A stretch of 64,000 nucleotides of DNA from the sequence record PP359570. The stretch is one strand, 5' to 3'. Positions 25,966-38,132 of this stretch are shown here, piece after piece. The translations under genes and the position numbers were made by a program. Source of the stretch: Escherichia phage ALITA. The notes beneath the pieces were generated by a model. It saw only the letters and a list, made by a program, of their open reading frames with translations, was not told where the DNA came from and did no database searches. Numbering within the stretch: position 1 is the stretch's first letter; each line of letters opens with the position of its first letter.

Positions 25966-26475
25966 TTAGCGATAAAATTGATGTTCTTTGTAGCGGTACA
26001 CTAGAACCATATCTTTTTCCCAGTGTGCTCTTATTGTAGATTTTTTAAAGTATAATGCTCCTTTTGTAATATCTAATGCAATTCGTAATTCTGGAAAATG
26101 CGTATCGAGATAAAGTAGACGTTCTGCTATAGCCTTAGCTTCCTTCCACTTATCACGTTCCATAACGTTGAATGTCTTTGTGTAAGAGAATTGTCCTTTT
26201 TGAAACAAAACTTCTTTTATAGTATCAGGGAAATATGAATCTCTAGCCCTATTCAATACTACATTACCAACAGCAGACATACCGCGCTTTCCTTGATTAC
26301 GACTTTCTGCATAGATTGCACAAGCTAATAGATTTTCTTTACTATCACGCTTTGTACACTTGTGAACTACTTTAGCAGTTTTTACGTTTGCAGCTTCGGC
26401 TTGCGCCACAACAGGTGTAAATGTAAAAGCAGTTAAGGATAGTAACGCAATTGCGACAAAGGTTTTTATTGACAA
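25966..26475 (-). CDS. Cell wall hydrolase (SleB/Hydrolase_2 family) with N-terminal signal peptide; putative secreted endolysin
   Basis: 169 aa; signal peptide MSIKTFVAIALLSLTAFTFTPVVAQA; motif AIYAESRNQGKRGMSAVGNVVLNRAR. Confidence 0.75.
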   Translation of the reverse strand: MSIKTFVAIALLSLTAFTFTPVVAQAEAANVKTAKVVHKCTKRDSKENLLACAIYAESRNQGKRGMSAVGNVVLNRARDSYFPDTIKEVLFQKGQFSYTKTFNVMERDKWKEAKAIAERLLYLDTHFPELRIALDITKGALYFKKSTIRAHWEKDMVLVYRYKEHQFYR

Positions 26476-26538
26476 ACTTGCCTCCTATTTTGTTAAACGA
26501 ACTTTTATTGTAACACAGAAGAGGCTGTTTTGCAAGTG

Positions 26539-26558
26539 GAGGGGGATAATCCCCCTCT
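26539..26558 (-). promoter_or_regulatory. GC-rich hairpin between genes (attenuator/processing site)
   Basis: GGAGGGGGAT-AA-TCCCCCTC. Confidence 0.35.
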
Positions 26559-26567
26559 TACATTCTG

Positions 26568-27170
26568 TTAGATGTTGTAAACCTTTGTATGAGTTACTAC
26601 ACCATCTTCTACAAAATCAATACGTTCTTGATCCGTAACTAGTGCAGACAATACTTTAAATTTAATTGTTACACGTTCAAAAGCTGGTTGACCATCTTTA
26701 AGATAATTATGTTCGGTTGTCACTGTCTTGTTTACAAAATCAACTTTCGCTTTACCGTTTTCGCGCAAGTGGAATGTTTTTCCTGCTTTATACACAATTT
26801 CAACATTACCTTCGAGAGTAATTCCTTCAAAAAGTTCACCCTCTTCTTCATTTTCTTCGCTTTTGAACAGACGACGAAACTCTTCCATATCAAGATAAAC
26901 AACATCTTCAGAATAACTATCAGTAAGGTATGTCTTACCATCCATTAACCCGAAATATTGCCAGATCGCAGAATAAACATCACTAGTTGATCCAAGGGTT
27001 TCTCTGAGTTTAGTTCCACGGATTACTTCATAAACTTCAAAATTGAAACCAGACTGCAAAGCATTAAACAGTACATCACTAACTTCTAAAGCATAATCTT
27101 CATTGTTGTCAATATCCACAAGAAAATTACCGCTGCGAATAAGTTTTTGACCTTCTAAAGTAATACCCAT
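26568..27170 (-). CDS. Hypothetical protein
   Basis: 200-aa ORF. Confidence 0.5.
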   Translation of the reverse strand: MGITLEGQKLIRSGNFLVDIDNNEDYALEVSDVLFNALQSGFNFEVYEVIRGTKLRETLGSTSDVYSAIWQYFGLMDGKTYLTDSYSEDVVYLDMEEFRRLFKSEENEEEGELFEGITLEGNVEIVYKAGKTFHLRENGKAKVDFVNKTVTTEHNYLKDGQPAFERVTIKFKVLSALVTDQERIDFVEDGVVTHTKVYNI

Positions 27171-27197
27171 TGTTTTCTCCTCTTCTATTTAAAATAT

Positions 27198-27213
27198 GCG
27201 CCCCGAAGGGCGC
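27198..27213 (-). terminator. Intrinsic terminator closing the Ter-like operon
   Basis: GCGCCC-CGAA-GGGCGC; on minus strand followed by ATATTTTAAAT. Confidence 0.6.
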
Positions 27214-27222
27214 TATGATTTA

Positions 27223-27819
27223 TTACTCGAACCAATCGTCGCCAGCGCCAAACGCTTTAACTACATCATAAATGTCAAGTCCAGCTTTACCTACACCATA
27301 TGCTTTCAGTTTCCATTCGCTATCTTCCCGCACCAGGGAGGCAACGTGGCAAATGGTATTACCTGCAAGTTCTGGAGCCAAGAAGTCAAAATCCAGCAGT
27401 TCAACGTTACGTTCATCATCGAAGATTTTAAGGAAACCTTCGGTAGCGTGACCAAGGCGTTTCTTACCCGTTTCGTCATCAATAGTGATTACGAATGCAA
27501 TTTCCTGTGCTTCAGCAGAGATATTATCCAGTGTAACATCAATCTGCTCCATTTGTCCTACACCGTCACGAACATCTTCACCTGCAAAAGTAGAACGTTC
27601 AGGATCAAATTTCTGTGCGTAGCATACCAGGTGGCGAGGAGACAACAGTTCCGGCAGACCAGATGCATTGTGTCGGCAAATCAGAGCACTAACATCCAGA
27701 TCCAGTTTTTCGTTAGATTTCCAAGAGAATTCCAGACGAATGCGTTTCAGTGCTGGTGCAATCTTTTTCAGAGAAACTTTTTCGCTAGAACCTTTTTTCA
27801 GGGAAATTTTCTGAGTCAT
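27223..27819 (-). CDS. TerD-family protein (tellurium-resistance/stress-response TerD domain)
   Basis: 198 aa; alignable by eye over full length to E. coli TerD (MTQKISLKKG..VSLKK, LDLDVSAL, IAFVITIDD, EWKLKAYGVGKAGLD). Confidence 0.85.
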   Translation of the reverse strand: MTQKISLKKGSSEKVSLKKIAPALKRIRLEFSWKSNEKLDLDVSALICRHNASGLPELLSPRHLVCYAQKFDPERSTFAGEDVRDGVGQMEQIDVTLDNISAEAQEIAFVITIDDETGKKRLGHATEGFLKIFDDERNVELLDFDFLAPELAGNTICHVASLVREDSEWKLKAYGVGKAGLDIYDVVKAFGAGDDWFE

Positions 27820-27891
27820 AATTTATTATCTCCTTTGTTGTTAATTTACGTTGTCTATTTTACTAATCTTTTCTACAAAGTCAAGCGTTTT

Positions 27892-28686
27892 TTACGCTTT
27901 TGCTCCAAATTTTTTAACCCACTCGCCAAACTCTTCGGATAGCAGTTTATCGTAAAGTTCTTCGTCAGACAAGGACAAATCTGCAATACCGATAAAATCA
28001 ACGTTATCGTATTCTTTTGCCAAGTCTTTCAGGAATTTAAAGTTTGCATTACCTACACCAACCATAAACCAGTAAACAGGAGTGTTGCGGTGTTTGTTCA
28101 GCAAACTACGTACTGCTGAAGTATCCATGTTCTCCCCGTCAGTTTGGAAGAAAATCATTGCAGGAGTACGATCAACTTGTGCATCAGTATCTACAACCTG
28201 TTCTACAACAGTACGTGTAACTTCTACACGTTCTTTTTTACCAGTTAGTTTAGCAAGGAAACCCTTAGCCGGAACTTCTTCATACTCAACGACTTCGCGT
28301 GTAATATTTTTCATAGGTACACTACCGAAGTATGTATCATAGATCTCTTGCATTACTGGAGCATAAGCTGTACCACCATTGATGCAAACATTAGACATAC
28401 AAGAGCCGACATAATCATCATATACATCAGCCGTTGCAGGAGGCAGTTCAAAAGAAGAACTATTGAAAGCCCACATGTCAATCTGTGCATTATCATCAAA
28501 CTTCATACCAAACGGCAGCAGCTTACCTACAAAATCACTAACAGTGCCATCACGATACAGCTCACACATACTACCCGAAATATCTAAGGCGCTACCGACA
28601 CGAAGAACAACATCGTTAATCTTTTTCTTACGCAGAGATACGGTAAGAGTTTCTTGACGTTTTTTAAGACTGATTTTATTGGACAT
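27892..28686 (-). CDS. von Willebrand factor A (vWA) domain protein, TerY-like
   Basis: 264 aa; MIDAS motif DISGSM; adjacent to TerD. Confidence 0.7.
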   Translation of the reverse strand: MSNKISLKKRQETLTVSLRKKKINDVVLRVGSALDISGSMCELYRDGTVSDFVGKLLPFGMKFDDNAQIDMWAFNSSSFELPPATADVYDDYVGSCMSNVCINGGTAYAPVMQEIYDTYFGSVPMKNITREVVEYEEVPAKGFLAKLTGKKERVEVTRTVVEQVVDTDAQVDRTPAMIFFQTDGENMDTSAVRSLLNKHRNTPVYWFMVGVGNANFKFLKDLAKEYDNVDFIGIADLSLSDEELYDKLLSEEFGEWVKKFGAKA

Positions 28687-28687
28687 A

Positions 28688-28957
28688 TTATTTCTCCTTT
28701 CTGAGTGTAATGTTAGTAACTTCTAAATCCACTTCTACCACTTCTGTATCATATAAAATACAGTTAAGTTGACCTCTTTGTGAACCGTTCAGACACATTG
28801 CTTGGTTTGTATTAACCTTAATAAACACTAAGTTTCTGAACGTATCTAAACCAGCATCTTGATAGGCAACATAATATACGAATGTATCACCTGTGTCAAG
28901 TTCTCCAAAACATTTAGGTTCATCTGATTTGTCGTCTTTGATATTAAATTTAAGCAC
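28688..28957 (-). CDS. Hypothetical protein
   Basis: 89-aa ORF. Confidence 0.45.
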   Translation of the reverse strand: MLKFNIKDDKSDEPKCFGELDTGDTFVYYVAYQDAGLDTFRNLVFIKVNTNQAMCLNGSQRGQLNCILYDTEVVEVDLEVTNITLRKEK

Positions 28958-29513
28958 TGTCTTCTCCTTTACCTGCTCTCAAGCCTAAATAGAAAGCCTC
29001 TCTGGTGATCTTTTGCAACTCGTTTAAAGAGATAGTTACAACTAAATCATCTTCAATTTCTAGCTTTGAGTCTTCTTCTGTCTCAATGCAAGTATTATGC
29101 ACTTTGTGGTAAGGATTGTCAACACGTTTAAATTTATTATTTTCAGTGCTGAAGAAGCAATCTGGATCTTCTTCCCCATCACCCCAACCCTGGTTAGGAT
29201 CTTCTTCAGATCTTTCTGTTGGGATCTCGCCTGTAAAGTGCTCTTCTAATACCAGAGCAATCCCATCTCCAAGATCGGAAGAGAACATCAAATTACAAAC
29301 TTCTTCCCAAGGCATAGACCACTTAAATCTTTTACGATTGCCATGTTTATCTTCTTCGTTAGAGAAAACACTACCATAGCTATCATAATTCCCATACATC
29401 TCTTCGACAACCTTACCACCTTTCAAAAGAAATAGGTAGCAAGGAGAGCCATCGAAAGAGGTAGAAAGAGCAGCATTACCAGACTCTTTGCACAAGAAAC
29501 TAAAACACCCCAT
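28950..29513 (-). CDS. Hypothetical acidic protein
   Basis: 187-aa ORF. Confidence 0.5.
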   Translation of the reverse strand: MGCFSFLCKESGNAALSTSFDGSPCYLFLLKGGKVVEEMYGNYDSYGSVFSNEEDKHGNRKRFKWSMPWEEVCNLMFSSDLGDGIALVLEEHFTGEIPTERSEEDPNQGWGDGEEDPDCFFSTENNKFKRVDNPYHKVHNTCIETEEDSKLEIEDDLVVTISLNELQKITREAFYLGLRAGKGEDSA

Positions 29514-29713
29514 TATACACCAGCCTTAAGATCAATTAAAGCCAAAGTTGTTTCAGAGTGTGTTTGCTCGTCTACAGGTGCAGTCATATGATAATACAAA
29601 AAATCTTCGGCATCATACCAATCTGATTCTTGACCTTGTTTCCAACCATCAATGAAAGCATCTTCCATAATGGTTTGCAATTCTTCACGAGTTAAGTGAA
29701 TATCTTTACTCAT
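29513..29713 (-). CDS. Hypothetical small protein
   Basis: 66-aa ORF. Confidence 0.4.
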   Translation of the reverse strand: MSKDIHLTREELQTIMEDAFIDGWKQGQESDWYDAEDFLYYHMTAPVDEQTHSETTLALIDLKAGV

Positions 29714-29919
29714 TACACATTCTCCTCTTTTACCAATTCCATTGTTGAATTGTCAAAACCATCTTTAGAAGAATAGGTATAGACAGCACGTAGTTCTCGC
29801 AGGACAGTGAATACATTAGGATCATCTAACCAAGCATCCTGGAGGAGAACATAACGATCTTCATTGTCATACTGGACAGCAATCATAGAGCCAGACAGTT
29901 TGTAAATTTTAATATTCAT
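29713..29919 (-). CDS. Hypothetical small protein
   Basis: Start at internal ATG with SD AAGGAG (MNIKIYK...). Confidence 0.4.
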   Translation of the reverse strand: MNIKIYKLSGSMIAVQYDNEDRYVLLQDAWLDDPNVFTVLRELRAVYTYSSKDGFDNSTMELVKEENV

Positions 29920-29932
29920 AATATATTTCTCC

Positions 29933-31036
29933 TTAAAGTAGACCACGTTTAACAGTTTGAATCATACCATCTTCAAGAGATTGCACTTCTTGAATGTAAT
30001 CAATACGAGCAGCACGGGCTTCAGTGTTGATTCGGTTAGTTTCTTCCAACATTTTAACTAAGTTTTCTTGATCACGACGCAATGTTTCAATATCCAATAC
30101 TTGACGATTAGCAAGTTGTGTAGCTTCAATCTGGTTTTGTGCAGCCAGATCACTACCCATTGCAATAGCAGCATTAAATTCATTCAGTACGTTGTTCTGT
30201 GTATCGGCTGCTTTCTTCTGGCGCAGACTTTCAATATACATAGAAAAGTTTGCAGAGTAAGCAGGAATAACATTGTTCACAATATTACGGGCTGATCGCA
30301 TCAAACTTGCAGATACTTTCTGCATACTTTGTACACGTGGCCCCATCTGAACGCACAGTAAGCGTAAGGCTTTCAGGTCTGCAATACGAATTTCAAGCAG
30401 ATCCATAGTGTCACGAGTACGTTGACGCTCTTCTACTTCATTTTCAGGTAGTGTATTAAGGCGAACTTCTTCTTTTTCATAAGTAGCTGTTAGAAGCTCT
30501 ATATCCCTGTTTAAGCTAAGAGCATATTTTGCAATAGCCTCCTCTAAACGTTGCAGATATCGTAAAGAATCTTCTTCTTTTTTCAAGTCTGTTTGGAGTG
30601 TCTTTACCAAACCCTCAATACGATTATTGATGGTGTCAAATTCTCCAAACAAATCTTCTTTCATACCTAATACTTTCTTAACTAACTTACCTAAACCTTT
30701 AGATTGTTTAATAGAATTAGGATCAAGTTGCTTTGCTTGCTTAATAAGTGCAGTTAAACGTTCACTCATTTCATCTCCCTGAGATGAACGCTGGTGTTTA
30801 AGCACTTCAGCATTAAGGTTACGAAGAGTAAGTCCTGCATCAGCACCAACTTGTTCAATCTCTTCACGAGACATTGGAGGCAGCATTTGTACAGGTCGTG
30901 CAACAGCAGGGGCATATACAGGACTTGCATCCATAGCACTTGGAGCAAACAAAGACTTACTTTTTTCTGTTGTTGCCGTGAATACACTCATTTCAGACGG
31001 TTTGCTTTTTACGGCACTGATAAAAGGACTGGACAT
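29933..31036 (-). CDS. TelA-like (toxic anion resistance family) coiled-coil protein
   Basis: 367 aa, extended alpha-helical/coiled-coil architecture and length typical of TelA/KlaB; context with TerD/TerC. Confidence 0.55.
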   Translation of the reverse strand: MSSPFISAVKSKPSEMSVFTATTEKSKSLFAPSAMDASPVYAPAVARPVQMLPPMSREEIEQVGADAGLTLRNLNAEVLKHQRSSQGDEMSERLTALIKQAKQLDPNSIKQSKGLGKLVKKVLGMKEDLFGEFDTINNRIEGLVKTLQTDLKKEEDSLRYLQRLEEAIAKYALSLNRDIELLTATYEKEEVRLNTLPENEVEERQRTRDTMDLLEIRIADLKALRLLCVQMGPRVQSMQKVSASLMRSARNIVNNVIPAYSANFSMYIESLRQKKAADTQNNVLNEFNAAIAMGSDLAAQNQIEATQLANRQVLDIETLRRDQENLVKMLEETNRINTEARAARIDYIQEVQSLEDGMIQTVKRGLL

Positions 31037-31104
31037 TCAATTTCCTCCATATTCTTTAGTAGATGGTGATACCTCTGTACCACCATCATAACACAAATTA
31101 AGTA

Positions 31105-31956
31105 TTAAACAAACATATCTAAATAATTTGTAGTAATAAATGCTCCATCTGCTTCCAGATTAACATAACCAGTAGCATTAGTGGTTAAGAAATCCAGATC
31201 GAAGGACTCTTTAACACCCCGTACCTCAACACGAGAGATATCGAATACAGGTAGTGTAACAGCCTCTTCGTGCAATACCGTACCTTTGTAGGTTGCCTTA
31301 ATGATAAACTTGATATTACCCGTTCCAGCATCATACAAAACACTTTCAAACCCTTTGAGAGTATATTTATCACCAGAAGTGAAGTGCAAAGTTGCTTTGT
31401 TTACAGTACGTTTTTTACGAGGAGTTCCTTTCACACGTTTATGATCACTACGTTTTTTGTATTTAGGAATGAATACAAACGATACACTCTCAAGAAAGGT
31501 ATCAACATCAAGGATTTTAATATCCTCTGTTGCAGCAAATTTTGAAGTCGTTGCATCAAAATGCTTTTCCCTGCGATCATACATAAAGATATCAAACCGA
31601 TCTTCTAAATCAAACAAATTATGTATTTTAATTTCAGAATGCTTGCGCATTGCAGCAACCTTGAACTCTTCAAAACGTGGGTGTTCTACAAGTTCTTCAA
31701 GTTTTACACCAAAGACAGTATATTGCTTCGAAGTCTTTTCTGGTGTTGGCATTACAGAAGCATAATCACCGATTGCGCTCTTAAAGCAAAATTGTTCTTG
31801 ACCTGTATTTTTACCAACGAATTTACAGTATTCGTCATTGTGCATACTTTCCTTAGTAGTACCAACAAACTCAAAACCATCTTTATTCTTCTCAAGGATT
31901 TCTTGATTAAAGATCCAACCTTCCAGGCGATATACTTTACCAACTTCTAGTTTCAT
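31105..31956 (-). CDS. Hypothetical protein
   Basis: 283-aa ORF. Confidence 0.5.
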   Translation of the reverse strand: MKLEVGKVYRLEGWIFNQEILEKNKDGFEFVGTTKESMHNDEYCKFVGKNTGQEQFCFKSAIGDYASVMPTPEKTSKQYTVFGVKLEELVEHPRFEEFKVAAMRKHSEIKIHNLFDLEDRFDIFMYDRREKHFDATTSKFAATEDIKILDVDTFLESVSFVFIPKYKKRSDHKRVKGTPRKKRTVNKATLHFTSGDKYTLKGFESVLYDAGTGNIKFIIKATYKGTVLHEEAVTLPVFDISRVEVRGVKESFDLDFLTTNATGYVNLEADGAFITTNYLDMFV

Positions 31957-31991
31957 CTGTTTCTCCTTCTTATTTAATCTGTATTAAATTA

Positions 31992-32582
31992 TTAACGACG
32001 ACGTGAGCTACTAAAACTACGTTTCGACGAAGAATAACTTTTCGAAGACTTACTATAAGAGCTAATAGGGCTTGAGTAAGACTTACGAGCAGAGTAATCA
32101 CTATTCACTTTTGTTGTTGACGGGCGTGAATACGTTTGTACACTTTGCTGCTTAATTGTGTTTTGTTTAGTGGTTGTATATTTATTTCCTTGTTTATCAT
32201 AAAAACTATGCTTTTGTGTTGTATATGCTTTACTGTTAGTTGTAGGAGCAGCGTTGTTATTAATAATTGTTGTACTGCTACCACCATCTCTATAACCGCC
32301 ACCGCCACTATTACCACTCAACATATGACCAAGAAGCATACCTGTAGCAAACTCACCTACACCAGAAGAACCACTGCCGCCTCCTTGCACAACAACTGTT
32401 GAAGGTTGTGCAGGTGCTGCTTGAACAACTTGAGGTGCAGGTTGATTTACATATTGTTCATCTACCATCTGATTTGGTGTTTGTTGGTAACGTTGATTTT
32501 GTACATTTTCAGAATCATCACAACCTACCAGCAATGCACTACCTAATACAACTGCAACAATAAAAGATTTAATGTTTTTCAT
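31992..32582 (-). CDS. Lipoprotein with glycine-zipper segment and S/Y/K-rich low-complexity tail
   Basis: Signal peptide plus lipobox LLVGC; GGGSGSSGVGEFATGMLLGHML glycine zipper; start set at MKNIKS. Confidence 0.55.
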   Translation of the reverse strand: MKNIKSFIVAVVLGSALLVGCDDSENVQNQRYQQTPNQMVDEQYVNQPAPQVVQAAPAQPSTVVVQGGGSGSSGVGEFATGMLLGHMLSGNSGGGGYRDGGSSTTIINNNAAPTTNSKAYTTQKHSFYDKQGNKYTTTKQNTIKQQSVQTYSRPSTTKVNSDYSARKSYSSPISSYSKSSKSYSSSKRSFSSSRRR

Positions 32583-32775
32583 TTGTAACCCTCTCATTTA
32601 AAGTCTCAACACAATTTTTAAAATCCCTAGAGAAACAATACATCTGTTCTCCGTTCCTGTTGATAGTAATTGTATGGTTATCAATATATGTTGTCAAGAT
32701 AAAAATCAAACAAAACAACCCTAGAGCAAAACAAATATTTTCAAACAGAATCCAAAGAACACGTAAAACCACCAT
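32569..32775 (-). CDS. Small membrane protein
   Basis: 68 aa, one hydrophobic helix. Confidence 0.4.
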   Translation of the reverse strand: MVVLRVLWILFENICFALGLFCLIFILTTYIDNHTITINRNGEQMYCFSRDFKNCVETLNERVTNEKH

Positions 32776-32790
32776 CAGATCACCTCAACA

Positions 32791-32808
32791 AAGCCCCCGA
32801 AGGGGCTT
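32791..32808 (-). promoter_or_regulatory. Intra-operon hairpin (partial terminator) after TerC gene
   Basis: AAGCCCC-CGAA-GGGGCTT. Confidence 0.4.
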
Positions 32809-32814
32809 AATGAA

Positions 32815-33792
32815 TTAAGCAACAGTCTGGTCTTCTTTTTCAGGGAAGATTAAACTTGCAATAACACCCAACCCAAGAGTACCTAACACAATATACATAC
32901 TGATCGTCGGATCAATGTGTGCTGGCAGGAAACTCACTTTTGCGTGCAGAGTTTCTGCAAACGGATGATACATCAGTTTTACACCCACAAACACCAGGAC
33001 TACGATAACTGCTTTCTCCAGATGAACCAAATACTTCAGTGCAACACTAAGAACAAAGAACAGAGCACGTAAACCTAAGATTGCACAAAGCATCGAAGAG
33101 AACACCAGCAGAGGTTCTTGTGTCACTGCAATTACTGCTGGAACAGAGTCTACTGCAAAGATTACGTCTACCATTTCCATTACAAACACACAAACCAGAG
33201 CCGGAGTTGCTACACGAACACCATTTTTGATTGTGAAGAACTTCTCACCATCCATCTGATCAGATACAGGGAACAGCTTACGAACAATACGAGTAGCCCA
33301 GTGTTTAGAGTAATCAATTTCTGCATCATTATCCCCAGCGAATACCATTTTAGCCGCACAGAAAAGGATGACAGCACCGAAGAAGATATTAACATACCAG
33401 CCCAAACTCAACAAGTAAGTACCTACTGCTACAAACACACCTCGGAAGACAATTGCACCTGCAATACCCCAAAGTAGAATCTTGTGCTGCAAGTGTGTGC
33501 TTTTAATACCAAAACTTGCGAAGACTGCCACAAATACTACTAAGTTATCTACAGAAAGAGATTTCTCCAACACATAACCACTCAAGAACAAGCTCGCAAA
33601 ATCAGCACCGTGTTGGAAGTATACAAAACCATAGTAGGCTAATGATACCCCAATCCAGAAAATTGACCAGCCAATTGCAGATTTAAATGAGATCTCTTTG
33701 TTTTCTCTGTGTCCAAAGAAGTCAATACAAATCGACAAGACTAAAATACCCACTAAAACAACCACATCAATAATTGGGAAACCCAGTTGCAT
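32815..33792 (-). CDS. TerC-family integral membrane protein
   Basis: 325 aa, multi-pass; motifs EKSLSVDNLVVFVAVF and IFAVDSVPAVIAVTQEPLLVFSSMLCAILGLRALFF. Confidence 0.85.
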   Translation of the reverse strand: MQLGFPIIDVVVLVGILVLSICIDFFGHRENKEISFKSAIGWSIFWIGVSLAYYGFVYFQHGADFASLFLSGYVLEKSLSVDNLVVFVAVFASFGIKSTHLQHKILLWGIAGAIVFRGVFVAVGTYLLSLGWYVNIFFGAVILFCAAKMVFAGDNDAEIDYSKHWATRIVRKLFPVSDQMDGEKFFTIKNGVRVATPALVCVFVMEMVDVIFAVDSVPAVIAVTQEPLLVFSSMLCAILGLRALFFVLSVALKYLVHLEKAVIVVLVFVGVKLMYHPFAETLHAKVSFLPAHIDPTISMYIVLGTLGLGVIASLIFPEKEDQTVA

Positions 33793-33810
33793 TCTTTTCT
33801 CCTCTTTAAT

Positions 33811-33829
33811 GCGGAGGACAATCCTCCGC
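33811..33829 (-). promoter_or_regulatory. Hairpin upstream of TerC gene
   Basis: GCGGAGGA-CAAT-CCTCCGC. Confidence 0.35.
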
Positions 33830-33869
33830 TCTATGTCTTATACTATAAACTGTTTTTAAAGAAAGTCAA

Positions 33870-34118
33870 CTAGTTCAGTTCTGTAATTTTAAGTTTATCT
33901 TCTTTGTTAATGATAGGGAAAGCTACAGCATCACCTACGTCATCAATAAAGCAAATAGCAATACCACCTTCCACTTTGCTAATCTGACCATTAAAGGCAT
34001 GATACGGGGCAGGAACTTGATCTCCATCTTCAAGGAGAATAGCCTCGTAAACCTTGCCGATAGTACAATCACGAGTGTTTCTAAATTTTTCAAGCACTTC
34101 AACATTTACTTTACGCAT
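33870..34118 (-). CDS. Hypothetical protein
   Basis: 82-aa ORF. Confidence 0.45.
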   Translation of the reverse strand: MRKVNVEVLEKFRNTRDCTIGKVYEAILLEDGDQVPAPYHAFNGQISKVEGGIAICFIDDVGDAVAFPIINKEDKLKITELN

Positions 34119-34132
34119 ATAAAAATCCTCTC

Positions 34133-34339
34133 TTATTTGTTAGATTGAAAGATACCACGAAGTACCGCAAGAATGAACGTCACACAGACTACACTCCAAA
34201 ACGTTACAGGAACATGATGCCAGTCTAAACCGATAATGTCAATCATATAGTTGTATGCTAAAAGCAGTAGCCAACTAGGGATTAACACAATCAAGAACAC
34301 AACAATAAAACAACCTAATACTGCTAAAACACCTGCCAT
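34133..34339 (-). CDS. Small two-helix membrane protein
   Basis: 68 aa, two TM segments. Confidence 0.45.
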   Translation of the reverse strand: MAGVLAVLGCFIVVFLIVLIPSWLLLLAYNYMIDIIGLDWHHVPVTFWSVVCVTFILAVLRGIFQSNK

Positions 34340-34348
34340 ACTTTCTCC

Positions 34349-35065
34349 TTATTTCAGTTTGTAAACAATTACATTTAAACCTTTGTTCACTAGAGTTTCT
34401 TCGATCATAAGTTTTACAATATTCCAAGAACCTCCAGCCAAACCACAACCAAGCATTGGTAAACCTACAATTTTACCGCCTGAAGATACAACATCGTCTC
34501 CCATACTATCTAACGCATTGTAGATAGCTTCATAATTCAGGTCACGCTTACCTTCCTCACGACGACTATAACCATATTGTCCATATAAATTATAAATTGT
34601 CAAATTGTTTTCTGTATATTTGGTAAACGTACCTAATTTTTTATAATCACCACGTTTAGTGGCACAATCTGCTTTAAACGCACCAGGCCACTTGCTTTTA
34701 ATTTTTGGTGCAATACCACTACCCATAGTGCAAAAACAGTTACAGCAGTGTGCTATAGCGTCTATATCGCCTCTCTCGGCTGCTGCTAAAAGATCACCGT
34801 ATACCTCAATGATACCTGCCGGATAACTTGTTACAATTTCATCTTCCCAATACATTTTCTCTACACCACCGATCAGTGCAAAGTTTTGTGTAATGCGATC
34901 ATCAATATAGTTAAGACCTGAAACATACACAGCGTATTCATCCTGTGCTGTAATACCTTGCACACGAATTCTTAAGACACCATCTTTATCTGTTGCTACA
35001 CGCCCAAAATCTTTTTCTGTAATATTGGTGATAGGATCTCCGAAAGTCATTACTTTATTAGACAT
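34349..35065 (-). CDS. Macro-domain-like protein (putative ADP-ribose/nucleotide-derivative processing)
   Basis: Start at ATG with SD AAAGGGG (MSNKVMTFGD...); DAIAHCCNCFCTMGSGIA resembles macro DAIVNAAN..GGGV block; later GLPMLGCGLAGG. Confidence 0.45.
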   Translation of the reverse strand: MSNKVMTFGDPITNITEKDFGRVATDKDGVLRIRVQGITAQDEYAVYVSGLNYIDDRITQNFALIGGVEKMYWEDEIVTSYPAGIIEVYGDLLAAAERGDIDAIAHCCNCFCTMGSGIAPKIKSKWPGAFKADCATKRGDYKKLGTFTKYTENNLTIYNLYGQYGYSRREEGKRDLNYEAIYNALDSMGDDVVSSGGKIVGLPMLGCGLAGGSWNIVKLMIEETLVNKGLNVIVYKLK

Positions 35066-35915
35066 AATAATCCCCTTTAACATTAGGTTTGTTGATAATG
35101 TTGCTTTCAAAAAATTGACGTAGGAAATCAAAGTTCTCTTTGTATTTTTCAATGTTATTGTAACCTTCTGCAAGGCAACCAAAGAACAGTTGTTCTACAT
35201 AATACAAAGGAAGTTGTGAAAGTGCAATTTTAAAATCAACTTCGCTTTGACTCATTAGATACTTAATAGGACGAACCAAACATTTAGCATCAGCTTCTTG
35301 CTTAATCATTTTAATAAAAGCTGCCAGATTATTGATATAGTTGAAGTTAAGTGCAGCTTCGGTGTTGGCTTCTGTACCTTCATACTTTGCAAAGTACAGG
35401 AAAAACGTATCGTTTTCAACACCTTCTTTGTCTAAAATTTCAATAAGTTTTTCTTCGTGTGTTCCTGTAATATTAACATCATCAATGAAAATCAGAGTTT
35501 TATTACCCCAGAAATCACGATTGATAGAGAAAGTGTCACCATCGATCAAAGCCTTACGATCTTCTTTGCTAAGAAATCCATAATCATTGATATAGCTCAC
35601 TTTACGATGAACGATATCCCACTCCACTGGTTTACCACCTTTGATAGAGATTAGGTAGTTGAGGTGATCTACAAAATGTTCAGATAACACTGTAGCTGCA
35701 TTTTTCACATAGTTATATGGAGATGGAATAACAACAAAACTTTCATTTACCAGTCGTTCTTCATACTTAGAAAAGAAACTTTCAGCCAGAATGCGCCCCA
35801 TTCTTTTTGCTGCCTGGTTACTACCAAACTTTAGTTTGGAATAATCTGCAATGTTAAATTTTGCTTCCTTCAGGTTAGTAAAAGTATTAGCAAAATGTTG
35901 AATTTGATTACGCAT
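35058..35915 (-). CDS. Phosphoribosyltransferase (PRTase) family protein
   Basis: 285 aa; PRPP-binding-type motif LIFIDDVNITGTH. Confidence 0.7.
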   Translation of the reverse strand: MRNQIQHFANTFTNLKEAKFNIADYSKLKFGSNQAAKRMGRILAESFFSKYEERLVNESFVVIPSPYNYVKNAATVLSEHFVDHLNYLISIKGGKPVEWDIVHRKVSYINDYGFLSKEDRKALIDGDTFSINRDFWGNKTLIFIDDVNITGTHEEKLIEILDKEGVENDTFFLYFAKYEGTEANTEAALNFNYINNLAAFIKMIKQEADAKCLVRPIKYLMSQSEVDFKIALSQLPLYYVEQLFFGCLAEGYNNIEKYKENFDFLRQFFESNIINKPNVKGDYYV

Positions 35916-36564
35916 TAATAAGTTCCTCTTTTTTAAGTTTAGCCAACAAGTCTTCTGGATTAATAATATGACAGAACTTCATCCCTATGTCAACAGCTTT
36001 TCCATCATAAATCAAACTATCTCCAACGTGTAAAATCTCTTCTGGTGCGAGATCAAACGTCACCATTTCATCAAAAGAGAGTTTAAAAAACCTAGGATCT
36101 GGTTTACACAAGCAAAACTCGTCAGAAAAATGCATAAAGTCAAATGGTAATTTTGTTAAGCCAGAATATACAGCTAAGAAACTACCTGGTACAAAATTAG
36201 TATTGCTCTTAATACTCAAAGAGTAGGTTGAACTTAGCTCTTCCAACTTCTTGCAAAGTTCAGGATTCAATGTTGGAGGATGTTTTATAAACATTGCCAA
36301 ACAATCTCTTTTTAACCCATCCACTTTATCAAGATCAATGTTCAAACGAGTAGAAAGTGTTACCCAAGCATCCTTAGACGTTCCACAAATGCCTTTTTCT
36401 GCTTTTAAATCCAAGAAAGTTTTTACCTCTTTGTATACGGTAGCTGCTTCTGCCTCAGAGCAAGAGGCATACTCGGCAATAACCTTGTTGCGCTCTTCTG
36501 CATACAAAGGGTTAGCAGTAATAAGAGTATTCCATACATCAAAAGAAATATGCTTAACAGTCAT
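35908..36564 (-). CDS. HAD-superfamily hydrolase (phosphatase-like)
   Basis: Start at ATG with SD GGAGG (MTVKHISFDVWNTL); HAD motif I FDVWNTL and motif IV HVGDSLIYD. Confidence 0.6.
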   Translation of the reverse strand: MTVKHISFDVWNTLITANPLYAEERNKVIAEYASCSEAEAATVYKEVKTFLDLKAEKGICGTSKDAWVTLSTRLNIDLDKVDGLKRDCLAMFIKHPPTLNPELCKKLEELSSTYSLSIKSNTNFVPGSFLAVYSGLTKLPFDFMHFSDEFCLCKPDPRFFKLSFDEMVTFDLAPEEILHVGDSLIYDGKAVDIGMKFCHIINPEDLLAKLKKEELINA

Positions 36565-36566
36565 TT

Positions 36567-36722
36567 TTAATCCTCCGTCCAAAAGAATATCATCTGCTTA
36601 ATTTTATTGATTTCTTGATGTAGTAACTTTCCAGCATGTGATTGATCTTTAATATTGACAGCAAGAATTTCAAGTTCCGTTAGTTTTTCTTGGATAGCTT
36701 TATATTCATCATCTGTAAGCAT
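36567..36722 (-). CDS. Small hypothetical protein
   Basis: 51 aa (below ORF-track cutoff); SD AAGGGGAAG; stop 2 nt before HAD gene start. Confidence 0.3.
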   Translation of the reverse strand: MLTDDEYKAIQEKLTELEILAVNIKDQSHAGKLLHQEINKIKQMIFFWTED

Positions 36723-36733
36723 TTTCTTCCCCT

Positions 36734-36925
36734 TTAGAATGGTAATCTTTGTATGTCACTTATCCCCACACCAAGAAGTCTAGCAATATCCTTATCTAAA
36801 AGCAACTCTTTTTGTTCTAAAATGTTAATCAGATCTCCTAATACTTCTTTAATGTCACGATCATTTTTAGCAACGTGACCACCTGCTGTATCAACTTTAT
36901 CTTTAAAAACAAAGTAATGATCCAT
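36734..36925 (-). CDS. Small hypothetical protein
   Basis: Start at ATG with SD GGAGGG (MDHYFVF...). Confidence 0.4.
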   Translation of the reverse strand: MDHYFVFKDKVDTAGGHVAKNDRDIKEVLGDLINILEQKELLLDKDIARLLGVGISDIQRLPF

Positions 36926-36944
36926 AATACCCTCCATATAAATA

Positions 36945-36966
36945 AAGGAGGCTTTCGCCTCCTTTT
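36945..36966 (-). promoter_or_regulatory. Hairpin between AAA ATPase gene and downstream genes
   Basis: AAAGGAGGC-TTTC-GCCTCCTTT. Confidence 0.4.
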
Positions 36967-36971
36967 ATCAC

Positions 36972-38132
36972 TTAGTAAGAACGACCACCAAACACATACT
37001 CTGTGTAGTTTTTACGTTCTTTGTTTTTAATAACAACTTCAATGTTGTTGCCTTTATCATCGGTGAACACAAAGTGATAACCGTCACCACCCATTGTACG
37101 GATGTGTTTTTCATCATACGTCAGCAAGATACGGTCTACACCCCAGTAGTAGTCACCTTCTTCATCTTTGTCTTCTACTGTAACGACCCCTTCCATTTCA
37201 GGAAGATGCTCTTCTCCTAGCTTATGGTCTACAGCTACAACATAACGATTACCGCTAAACAAACCCTGTGCTGTCATACCGTCAATATCGGTATCTGCCG
37301 AAACATCTCCTGTACGATCTACACCGTTAACTTTCAGGAGTTTAACTTCTTTTGCAGCATAGCGGTGTTCAGTAATACTGATACCCATTAATGCAAGTGC
37401 ATCAGAGAATTTGTCATTAGGGTAACGGTTAAGTTCTTCTACTAGTGACTGAACAATATCAAAGTTCAAGTCCACGGAAAGATTATAAAGCGTTTCAAAA
37501 TCTGGTAAAAAGGCTTTGTTCTCCAGATTTTTAGCCAGATAGTCATCCATAGTAGCTTTAGGTAGTTTCTTATAGCTAAAACTGTAGAAAATACGGCTAG
37601 GACGATTACGCAAAAATTCTGATACATAACCATCATTTTTAGTCAATACAAACAGCTTGTCATAGCCACCTACACCATCCAGCAGAGTAAGCAAACCATC
37701 CTGTGCATCTTTTTCAGCATACAGTTTATCAAATTCATCGATCATAATCATCACAGGTTGTGTGATTTTAGACATAAAATTGATAAAGCCTTCGCCATTA
37801 AAAGCACTACCGATAGAAATAGTAGGAATACCCATTTCACGAAGAGCAGAAGACAGCATTTTAGCTTGCAAAGTTTTACCACTACCCTTCGTACCCTCAA
37901 GGAGAACACCTGTGTTTTTACCTTTGCGGCTAAGGAACGTCTTGATAATACGTTCTGATTTATCATCAGTATCACCGTATGTTACTGAAGGGACTTCCAT
38001 ATCGTTTTTAGGATACAGGAAGAACTCACCACTTTGAGTAACACCTACACCAAAAGTTCCTGCTGGAATTTCTTCAATATCTGTACCAGATTTCTGACGC
38101 AGGAAGATTTGATTGCCGAATACTGTAAACAT
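36972..38132 (-). CDS. P-loop AAA-type ATPase (paralog of 53127-54254)
   Basis: 386 aa; Walker A LLEGTKGSGKT, Walker B MIMIDEFDK. Confidence 0.75.
   Translation of the reverse strand: MFTVFGNQIFLRQKSGTDIEEIPAGTFGVGVTQSGEFFLYPKNDMEVPSVTYGDTDDKSERIIKTFLSRKGKNTGVLLEGTKGSGKTLQAKMLSSALREMGIPTISIGSAFNGEGFINFMSKITQPVMIMIDEFDKLYAEKDAQDGLLTLLDGVGGYDKLFVLTKNDGYVSEFLRNRPSRIFYSFSYKKLPKATMDDYLAKNLENKAFLPDFETLYNLSVDLNFDIVQSLVEELNRYPNDKFSDALALMGISITEHRYAAKEVKLLKVNGVDRTGDVSADTDIDGMTAQGLFSGNRYVVAVDHKLGEEHLPEMEGVVTVEDKDEEGDYYWGVDRILLTYDEKHIRTMGGDGYHFVFTDDKGNNIEVVIKNKERKNYTEYVFGGRSY

Follow-up and report, generated by a model that had tools for sequence, protein, structure and literature searches.

A conserved block of Ter genes with a HAD-phosphoribosyltransferase pair in Escherichia phage ALITA and other phi92-like coliphages

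The minus-strand genes at positions 27,223 to 36,564 of the window (the whole 64,000-nucleotide stretch of PP359570 analysed here) are a conserved accessory block of phi92-like coliphages, equivalent to phi92 gp172-gp189, whose downstream unit is a minimal TerC-TerD-vWA-TelA hub plus three small envelope proteins. We tentatively read the block as encoding an early inner-membrane Ter complex, protective or excluding, with a ligand made by a phosphoribosyltransferase (PRTase) and a HAD protein, and a macrodomain standing apart. The window shares 99.7% identity with Escherichia phage inny (phi92-like Justusliebigvirus), the DNA of the locus is 98-99.7% identical in at least 50 Justusliebigvirus records, and gene order is kept in Phapecoctavirus (phAPEC8 gp046-gp066) at about 50-80% amino-acid identity. 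Block genes are under purifying selection, with dN/dS values (0.07-0.25) like those of nrdD and the endolysin, and these values together with the phAPEC8 synteny indicated that the genes matter to the phage.

A known phage group carries this assemblage as one of its ordinary conserved blocks, and the block is syntenic in Phapecoctavirus. Genes of the Ter block are already annotated in the records (phi92 gp172-187), which carry the labels 'tellurite resistance', 'TerC', 'putative phosphoribosyltransferase', 'macrodomain' and 'HAD-like'. The Ter gene block itself, known and annotated, is therefore nothing new; the new detail, read from aligned sequences, is that the HAD family has an invariant Trp at the position of the Asp+2 general acid of phosphatases.

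Genes of the downstream unit

All ORFs named initially were found on the minus strand with the coordinates first given, and profile searches supported every assignment. The downstream unit comprises:

27223-27819, minus strand: single TerD-domain protein (PF02342, E 5e-28)
27892-28686, minus strand: vWA protein of the TerF C-terminal type (PF10138 vWA-TerF-like, E 7e-39)
28688-28957, minus strand: 89-aa ORF, duplicated in phAPEC8
28950-29513, minus strand: 187-aa protein whose N-terminal ~135 aa are a conserved phage domain
29513-29946, minus strand: two small ORFs of 77 and 66 aa
29933-31036, minus strand: TelA-family protein (PF05816, E 5e-34)
31105-31956, minus strand: 283-aa protein, poorly conserved in phAPEC8
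31992-32582 (or to 32597), minus strand: lipoprotein (PHROG 21570; lipobox LVGC)
32569-32775, minus strand: 68-aa single-pass membrane protein with a weak DUF6693 match
32815-33792, minus strand: TerC inner-membrane protein (PF03741, E 1e-38)

TerC scored 322 bits against TIGR03718 (cut-off 246). The TelA-family protein was modelled by AF2, at low confidence, as all-helical, with three helices of ~80 residues and a disordered N-terminal segment of ~56 aa. The vWA protein has a ~50-aa insertion and, by eye, an intact MIDAS motif (DxSxS..T..D); the vWA/MIDAS part of the earlier description stood, and its assignment to the TerY type did not, the protein being TerF-type. The TerD-domain protein aligned to Klebsiella TerD 2KXT (E 9e-15), its Ca2+-site motif being degenerate. 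The glycine-zipper lipoprotein was also recovered, with its lipobox, a Gly-rich segment, a Ser/Lys-rich tail and an Asp at +2, a residue that signals retention in the inner membrane in E. coli; the phAPEC8 homologue is 35% identical. The ~135-aa domain of the 187-aa protein (MGCFSF..NYDSYG..DPNQGWG) is strongly conserved, lacks a Pfam entry and is not confined to Ter contexts.

These genes could alternatively serve metal homeostasis, with TerC acting like Alx or MeeF/MeeY to export or chaperone Mn2+, Zn2+ or Ca2+, and with TerD and the vWA/MIDAS protein as metal-binding regulators; during infection they would adjust the supply or toxicity of metal to the needs of phage enzymes or of exported proteins. 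The 'TerC/Alx family metal homeostasis' model is passed by TerC, the vWA MIDAS motif is intact and the adjoining endolysin has a signal peptide; moreover, Klebsiella TerC has been tied to Zn and Mn resistance, and Alx is described as a Mn2+ exporter and MeeY as a TerC-family metal chaperone. Against this, no Rfam riboswitch and no Mn riboswitch was found in the region upstream of terC, the TerD Ca2+ motif is degenerate, TelA and the PRTase-HAD pair would be left unexplained, and the SleB-type hydrolase has no known metal requirement. We consider metal homeostasis improbable.

Transcription signals and the upstream unit

The following signals were located in and around the block:

27198-27213, minus strand: GC-rich hairpin GCGCCCTTCGGGGCGC after terD, with a weak T-tract
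27884-27857, minus strand: promoter-like site TTGACT-16-TAAAAT between the vWA gene and terD (sequence scan)
33829-33811, minus strand: 5'UTR hairpin GCGGAGGATTGTCCTCCGC, followed by the terC Shine-Dalgarno (sequence scan)
33869-33842, minus strand: sigma-70-like promoter TTGACT-16-TATAGT, directly upstream of terC
36944-36965, minus strand: hairpin AAAGGAGGCGAAAGCCTCCTTT, then ATTTAT; matched in position by terminators in the annotation of phage Paula

phAPEC8 shares the -35 element of the terC promoter and, with compensatory changes, the hairpin, and its record has a promoter annotated at this position. Because this near-consensus promoter and 5' hairpin precede terC immediately, the block is probably not the one operon initially proposed, and would consist of an upstream unit and a downstream unit with its own promoter. 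The promoter-like site between the vWA gene and terD is not conserved in phAPEC8, and the promoter scan overall gave no enrichment over shuffles. As for the terminator claimed after terD, the hairpin is present and the T-tract is weak; it may be a terminator or an RNA-stabilising element. The hairpin at 36944-36965 likely marks the upstream boundary, where it would terminate transcription of the AAA-ATPase gene that comes before. From there to the terC promoter we found:

33870-34118, minus strand: 82-aa ORF, absent from phAPEC8
34133-34339, minus strand: 68-aa protein with two hydrophobic segments, conserved in phAPEC8 (60% identity)
34349-35065, minus strand: macrodomain protein, TARG1/DarG-like (T4 Tk.4/AdfM family; PF01661)
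35058-35915, minus strand: PRTase_3, of a ComF-like, Ter-associated phosphoribosyltransferase family (PF15610, E 1e-41)
35908-36564 (ORF to 36582), minus strand: HAD-fold protein (PF00702)
36567-36722, minus strand: 51-aa ORF
36734-36937, minus strand: 67-aa ORF, phi92 gp189 (PHROG 17780; 'putative transcriptional regulator' in Paula)

The 67-aa ORF opens the upstream unit and has a 49% identical homologue at the same phAPEC8 position. The HAD hydrolase of the initial annotation was upheld as a HAD-fold protein: it scored 26.2 bits against PF00702, just below the cut-off of 26.4, with HAD motifs visible in the alignment, and its start is likely the ATG at 36564. Motif I is the non-canonical FDVWNT, in which the nucleophile Asp is kept and a Trp replaces the Asp+2 general acid, a pattern invariant in 49/49 homologues. 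Lacking this general acid, the protein makes a step in which a phosphatase yields a nucleoside doubtful. The phosphoribosyltransferase has an intact PRPP loop, IFIDDVNITGTHE, invariant across five phage lineages. The end of the HAD gene and the beginning of the PRTase gene share 8 nt, and the two genes form a translationally coupled pair. Of six phage contexts with gene calls, five have a HAD gene immediately ahead of PRTase_3; in L017 none was flagged beside it.

We considered whether the neighbourhood could be an incidental adjacency of a HAD-PRTase_3 pair for nucleotide or RNA metabolism (extending nrdDG), an anti-DarT macrodomain and a Ter membrane module, with no shared pathway. The separate conserved promoter between the two units fits such an arrangement, as does the position of the pair directly after nrdD-nrdG in both genera. 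In CcrColossus (a Caulobacter phage), Xanthomonas phage XaC1 and Rhizobium phages the Ter genes are in the same genome but 25-165 kb from the pair, and in several jumbo phages the pair lies far from Ter genes, beside RNA-repair or nucleotide-metabolism genes; in L016, L018 and XaC1 it adjoins a DUF2828/DUF7788 protein (called by Pfam in L016 and L018, and by size and position in XaC1) near an RNA ligase. On the other hand, every checked phage lineage with PRTase_3 also has Ter-domain genes, these lie <10 kb from PRTase_3 in three further, independent metagenomic phage contigs, and PF15610 was defined from bacterial Ter contexts. Incidental adjacency seems to us rather unlikely as an account of the whole block. 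Phages of unrelated lineages repeatedly combine HAD-PRTase_3 pairs with Ter genes, which, together with the Ter association of the PF15610 family, bears out the earlier link to the comparative-genomic idea joining Ter genes with PRTase and HAD enzymes.

The macro-like protein was confirmed by PF01661 (E 3e-7) and DarG models (about 1e-13), both within ORF 34349-35182; its start is likely the ATG at 35065 (238 aa), as in phage Paula, rather than the TTG at 35182. Its sequence is closest to TARG1-like and SCO6735-like macrodomains and carries GCGLAGG where TARG1 has its catalytic Asp. It is homologous to the DarG macrodomain and to T-even Tk.4 (29-37% identity, E 1e-9 to 6e-16), differing from T4 Tk.4/AdfM by an N-terminal extension of ~88 aa that is Justusliebigvirus-specific. 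T4 Tk.4/AdfM counters DarTG2 and so protects T4 (bioRxiv 10.1101/2025.11.20.689424). The family is a generic phage one, with 2,908 phage records of which most lack Ter genes, a spread that also fits incidental adjacency. Placing the macrodomain in one enzyme set with PRTase and HAD was probably wrong; judged by homology, an independent role against DarTG2 is more likely.

Possible role during infection

For the Ter complex that we tentatively favour, host RNA polymerase would express the block ahead of the late genes, a timing that only promoter-like sequences suggest. TerC would insert in the inner membrane and, depending on metal, TelA, the vWA protein and TerD would come together on the cytoplasmic side. 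The complex might then alter ion flux or the state of the membrane, making the infected cell resistant to secondary insults until programmed lysis; among these would be envelope or metal stress, pore-forming colicins and the injection of DNA by superinfecting phages. The PRTase would condense PRPP with some base and the atypical HAD protein would process the product, giving a nucleoside-like ligand of the complex; the macrodomain, most likely acting separately, would strip ADP-ribose from phage DNA and so counter DarTG2. Bacterial ter operons inhibit phages and protect against pore-forming colicins, loss of terC lowers phage resistance, and in CcrColossus TelA-vWA-TerC-TerD form a compact four-gene operon. 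Against the Ter complex stand the degenerate TerD Ca2+ site, the jumbo-phage pairs far from Ter genes and the absence of TerB, which in bacteria counts as a core partner of TerC. A further point against it is that we found no experimental work on phage Ter genes, a gap that the literature itself states.

The earlier statement that the phage carries the whole assemblage was too broad, for the block holds a minimal hub and lacks TerB, further TerD paralogues and the biosynthesis genes of the E. coli ter island. This bears on the possibility that these are literal resistance genes (morons) from which the host gains tellurite or xenobiotic resistance, for example in pseudolysogeny. Such a role agrees with the GenBank label 'tellurite resistance' and was raised as an extra possibility for jumbo phages (PMC7824862), but the phages are virulent and carry only a subset of ter genes, and the authors on phiPsa374 thought it unlikely that an incomplete ter set gives tellurium resistance. 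We regard it as very improbable.

Comparison with known Ter systems

The locus is the same in phi92, Justusliebigvirus and Phapecoctavirus (Stephanstirmvirinae), with minor differences: inny, phi92 and Paula have an AAA ATPase, the 82-aa ORF and a 200-aa ORF, all three missing from phAPEC8, and the inny macrodomain has the extra 88-aa extension relative to phAPEC8.

In Acinetobacter phage ME3 and Caulobacter jumbo phages, Iyer, Anantharaman, Krishnan, Burroughs and Aravind (2021, PMC7824862) had already described Ter systems that include PRTase and HAD, and had proposed a role in superinfection exclusion. These systems share with the window TerC, TerD, a TerF-type vWA, TelA and the PRTase and HAD 'signal biosynthesis' enzymes, as well as the proposed logic of competition with superinfecting phages; CcrColossus likewise combines TelA-vWA-TerC-TerD with HAD-PRTase_3. 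In contrast to those systems, the window phage is a ~147-kb non-jumbo myovirus, its two modules are contiguous, between nrdDG and the endolysin, and genes for additional envelope proteins, along with unrelated genes, are interspersed.

With the terZABCDEF island (IncHI2 R478, E. coli O157, Klebsiella) the block has in common a clearly orthologous TerC (47% identity to that of E. coli O157), a TerD-domain protein, a TerF-type vWA domain and a PRPP-dependent biosynthesis module. The island has five or six TerD-domain proteins where the phage has one, and TerB and TerW/X/Y, which the phage lacks; its biosynthesis module is made of PRTase_2-TRSP, StiP-PELOTA, ATPgrasp_Ter, HpcH and DUF4236, whereas that of the phage is PRTase_3 plus HAD. 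Finally, the phage block includes TelA, which in plasmids belongs to a separate system.

Gene content and identity of the Ter block

The locus is a block already known and annotated, conserved within an established phage group, and does not constitute a new kind of system. Escherichia phage inny (MN850601, a phi92-like Justusliebigvirus whose name we also use for the window's own block) was 99.7% identical to a 10-kb query covering the block, and more than 50 further phi92-like phages (Justusliebigvirus, Stephanstirmvirinae) matched this query at 98-99%. The window 27000-37000 block is also 98% identical to several GenBank 'Campylobacter phage' records with C. jejuni as host (MG065639, MG065645, MG065656, MG065689), records that probably name the wrong host or stem from contaminants. 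The record of phage Paula cross-references the block genes to phi92 gp172-gp189 and gives them labels such as 'putative stress protein', 'toxic anion resistance protein', 'membrane bound tellurium resistance protein', 'orotate phosphoribosyltransferase', 'phosphatase' and 'hydrolase', and the BASEL record of EmilieFrey names the three upstream genes HAD-like, phosphoribosyltransferase and macrodomain. What the window adds is a corrected annotation and two small leads, an atypical HAD motif and a likely independent macrodomain.

The gene content described in the initial annotation was essentially right. All the named ORFs were present at the minus-strand positions claimed for them, and TerD, TerC, TelA, vWA, PRTase and macro scored above the Pfam cut-offs, with the HAD protein just under:

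27223-27819, minus strand, TerD-domain protein
27892-28686, minus strand, vWA/MIDAS protein
29933-31036, minus strand, TelA
32815-33792, minus strand, TerC
34349-35065, minus strand, macrodomain protein
35058-35915, minus strand, PRTase_3
35908-36564, minus strand, HAD protein

TerC matched PF03741 (Pfam, E 1.4e-38) and NCBIfam TIGR03718 (322 bits, cut-off 246), and its full length aligned at 47% identity with the TerC encoded in the E. coli O157 ter island. A recent capture of the phage gene from host alx was considered and rejected, the E. coli DNA-level matches being short (~200 nt, ~70% identity) and confined to ter-island terC. The TerC gene is also mosaic between genera: the proteins of Phapecoctavirus P3322, REC and phiWec190 are 94-95% identical to inny TerC, those of most Phapecoctavirus records being at about 72%, a pattern that suggests recent inter-genus recombination at this gene (32815-33792, minus strand). 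The TerD-domain protein matched PF02342 (E 5e-28, profile positions 3-178 of 187) and aligned along its whole length with Klebsiella TerD (2KXT, phmmer E 9e-15); the window segment aligned with the acidic Ca2+ motif GDN.TGEG.GDDE, GEDVRDGVGQME, keeps the acidic residues in part. TelA covered positions 13-330 of the 332 of PF05816 (E 5e-34), and its AlphaFold2 model from single-sequence input (pLDDT 59) supports 'long helices' only. A PDB sequence search gave nothing usable for TelA or PRTase_3.

The vWA protein, previously described as TerY-like, is instead of the TerF C-terminal type (PF10138, vWA-TerF-like, E 7e-39). Its MIDAS residues D-I-S-G-S, T and D are kept, the generic VWA profile reached 21 bits, under its cut-off, and Pfam scans of the cluster revealed no kinase or PP2C domain, the partners in the TerY-P triad. 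In the glycine-zipper lipoprotein of the initial annotation, a lipobox, LVGC, is followed by Asp. Among PADLOC models there was no match to the Ter proteins; the macrodomain alone was matched, to DarG.

The HAD-PRTase_3 pair and the macrodomain protein

The phosphoribosyltransferase belongs to PF15610 (PRTase_3, E 1e-41), a family on whose biochemistry we found no literature. Its PRPP loop pattern (hydrophobic residues, DD, two residues, (T/S)G.T) is intact (IFIDDVNITGTHE), and the loop residues D145, D146, T150 and G151 are invariant in the alignment. The HAD protein scored 26.2 bits for a Pfam cut-off of 26.4, its motifs being clear in the alignment, where the nucleophile D9, S117/S120 of motif II, K154 of motif III, and D182 and D187 of motif IV are invariant. 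Motif I reads FDVWNT within KHISFDVWNTL and is not the canonical DxDx(T/V), with Trp at Asp+2 in all five divergent phage homologues and in 49 of 49 database homologues, down to 33% identity. The Asp+2 residue of motif I is the general acid/base in canonical HAD phosphatases. As judged from the alignments, the invariant Trp speaks against a canonical phosphatase mechanism for this HAD family, which leaves insecure the reading in which the PRTase would make a nucleotide that the HAD enzyme would then dephosphorylate to a nucleoside. A 257-aa 'hypothetical' protein of O157 was considered as a possible equivalent of the phage HAD protein and rejected, showing no similarity to it.

The macrodomain (Pfam E 3e-7) matched DarG in PADLOC (1e-13) and in NF048014 (5.5e-13), in the latter case with a score far under the equivalog cut-off because the macro part alone matches. 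TARG1-like structures were among its matches, and tblastn recovered tk.4 of JS10, VR7 and T4. Translation probably begins at the ATG at 35065; the ~88-aa N-terminal extension (34802-35065, minus strand), without a detectable family, is found only in ~69 Justusliebigvirus-type records, phage homologues outside these being macro-only. Tk.4 of T4, now called AdfM, is required for resistance to DarTG2, removal of ADP-ribose from DNA and protection from DarTG2 having been demonstrated for T4 only (bioRxiv 10.1101/2025.11.20.689424). Given the DarG- and TARG1-like matches, the tk.4 homologues within a family of 2,908 records and the AdfM finding, the macrodomain is best read as a putative independent anti-ADP-ribosylation factor, and not as a partner of the PRTase-HAD pair.

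Conservation, transcription and gene neighbourhoods

Gene order is shared with the Phapecoctavirus phAPEC8, starting with nrdD, nrdG, a small ORF, HAD, PRTase, macro, a small membrane protein and TerC, continuing with a small membrane protein, the lipoprotein, a weak partial match to the 283-aa ORF and TelA, and ending with small ORFs, a 187-aa ORF, an 89-aa ORF, vWA, TerD and the endolysin. Amino-acid identities lie at about 35-81% overall and at 49-81% for the named proteins (Ter, enzymes and macro). With synonymous sites at or near saturation in this comparison, dN/dS was 0.07-0.25 for every block gene, values comparable to those of nrdD (0.05) and the endolysin (0.15), which argues that the phage needs the block genes. 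An AAA ATPase gene (36972-38132), an 82-aa ORF and a 200-aa ORF (26568-27170), all outside the core, are not in phAPEC8. In Justusliebigvirus this AAA-type ATPase (minus strand, 386 aa, PHROG 2376) lies between nrdG and the block; near its position phAPEC8 has, flanked by the small ORF and the HAD gene, a gene for an unrelated 'putative hydrolase' of 201 aa.

The view of the block as a single operon is doubtful. The HAD and PRTase genes, and likewise PRTase and macro, overlap by 8 nt, so these three genes are expected to be co-expressed, but terC has a predicted promoter of its own, a near-consensus TTGACT-16-TATAGT in the gap before it, followed by a 19-nt 5'UTR hairpin. The phAPEC8 annotation has a host-type promoter at this position; there the -35 element is kept and the hairpin is maintained by compensatory substitutions. 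As promoters were not enriched in the overall scan (46 found, 37±7 expected from shuffles), only intergenic, conserved sites were used. Bacterial TerC/Alx genes are often preceded by a yybP-ykoY Mn2+ riboswitch. A riboswitch before terC was considered here and rejected, Rfam (E<=1) having found none in 25-39 kb of the window and the 5' element being a simple hairpin.

The terminator placed at 27198-27213 does exist as a hairpin, but its T-tract is weak. In phAPEC8 (stretch L002, 20430-20540), a hairpin, GAGGGGGA..TCCCCCTC, directly follows terD and precedes a TTGCAA-17-TAnAnT promoter and the endolysin gene; inny has the same hairpin-promoter element at 26500-26560, with the 200-aa ORF (26568-27170) and the GCGCCC hairpin inserted between it and terD. 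The SleB-type endolysin (25966-26475, minus strand) has a signal-peptide-like N-terminus.

Records matched by tblastn among 50,697 phage records
PRTase_3 query: 156
TelA query: 244
TerC query: 174
TerD (window query): 147
TerD (Caulobacter-phage query): 253
Macrodomain query: 2,908, T-even tk.4 included

A HAD gene stands directly upstream of PRTase_3 in Stephanstirmvirinae, Rhizobium phages, Xanthomonas phage XaC1, Caulobacter phages and four metagenomic contigs, the only exception among the contexts examined being metagenomic contig L017, with no HAD flagged beside PRTase_3. Three independent metagenomic phage contigs have Ter genes no more than 10 kb from PRTase_3. CcrColossus has its TelA-vWA-TerC-TerD genes in a compact operon 25 kb from the HAD-PRTase_3 pair; in XaC1 and the Rhizobium phages TerD is elsewhere in the genome, and in metagenomic contigs L016 and L018 there is no Ter gene within 10 kb of the pair, which in both adjoins a DUF2828/DUF7788 protein. 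At the level of gene neighbourhood, linkage of the pair to Ter is recurrent, not obligatory. An incidental adjacency of independent modules, compatible with the pairs that stand apart from Ter genes, seems somewhat unlikely when set against this recurrence.

The DUF2828/DUF7788 neighbour (~470-530 aa; L016 10967-12562, L018 7152-8555, XaC1 stretch L004 15941-17527) lies near an RNA ligase gene; in XaC1 the protein is unannotated and was matched to this family by size and position only. Genes for a tRNA nucleotidyltransferase (CCA-adding-type) are also near the pair in L016 and XaC1, and the contigs are of T4-like or jumbo phages. In Otagovirus phiPsa374 (L006 1-10500), TelA, vWA, TerC and TerD are just downstream of genes for a macrodomain, a nicotinamide phosphoribosyltransferase and a PRPP synthetase. 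This is the second instance in which phage Ter genes adjoin macro and PRPP-linked enzymes; no PRTase_3 was detected in the 15-kb stretch examined.

Possible roles and relation to known Ter systems

As the most likely mechanism we tentatively favour an early, TerC-centred membrane complex that protects the infected cell and excludes competitors. Host-type promoters would drive early expression of the block, and TerC would form the centre of a complex in the inner membrane, on whose cytoplasmic side TelA, TerD and the vWA/MIDAS protein would sit. By altering membrane state or ion flux, this complex would shield the cell from secondary insults and keep competitors out until lysis. The PRTase/HAD product would be its ligand, and the macrodomain would act apart, against DNA ADP-ribosylation.

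Metal homeostasis as the role of the Ter genes would agree with TerC-family proteins being described as metal exporters or chaperones, and is in our opinion unlikely. Literal xenobiotic resistance, as the tellurium and toxic anion labels of the Paula record would have it, is hardly credible. In the literature we found no phage-side experiment on Ter phage, colicin, tellurite or membrane-stress resistance. Quite improbable, too, is a Ter module that would serve as a broad counter-defence keeping the inner membrane energised against membrane-depolarising abortive-infection effectors, pore-forming colicins and superinfecting phages. It would be switched on by a previously unknown small molecule made by PRTase_3 and the atypical HAD enzyme, the invariant Trp at Asp+2 then implying chemistry beyond simple dephosphorylation.

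Ter genes occur widely, in bacteria and plasmids and in many virulent phages, phi92-like members of therapeutic cocktails among them. Their link to phage and colicin resistance goes back more than 30 years. The phage set is stripped-down (a single copy each of TerC, TerD, the vWA protein and TelA, plus a two-enzyme module), and because its carriers include E. coli K-12 phages amenable to genetics, BASEL Bas61 for one, it offers a convenient model for the Ter hub and its presumed metabolite.

The initial interpretation, a phage-run membrane-linked metabolic or signalling system, was reasonable but not new. Phage ME3 has a Ter system with PRTase and HAD, Caulobacter jumbo phages have shorter TerD-TerC-TerF-TelA operons, and Ter systems were noted in 'certain other related smaller tailed phages', the role proposed being competition with superinfecting phages (Iyer et al. 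2021, PMC7824862). Other genome papers have noted ter genes in virulent phages and call their function unknown. In bacteria, ter confers inhibition of phages and resistance to colicins, and a mutant of Klebsiella terC is more sensitive to phage. TerC, TerD, TelA, TerF-type vWA, and linked PRTase and HAD, components of the Ter stress-response hub (sensu Anantharaman, Iyer & Aravind 2012), are all in the block. The claim that the phage carries the whole assemblage, however, does not hold. The O157 island has TerZ, A, B, C, D, E and F together with a biosynthesis arm of ATPgrasp_Ter, PRTase_2-TRSP, StiP-PELOTA, HpcH aldolase, DUF4236 and TerW. When all its proteins were searched by tblastn against the 64-kb window, TerC was the sole match: TerB, TerZ, TerA and TerE matched nowhere in it, the biosynthesis proteins were missing both there and from the cluster Pfam scans, and these scans found no TerB in any cluster ORF. 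In contrast to the multiple paralogues of terZABCDEF (TerZ, A, D, E, F), the window block has a single TerD-domain gene. By its predicted gene content, the block is a minimal TerC-TerD-vWA-TelA hub combined with a different, putative two-enzyme biosynthesis variant.
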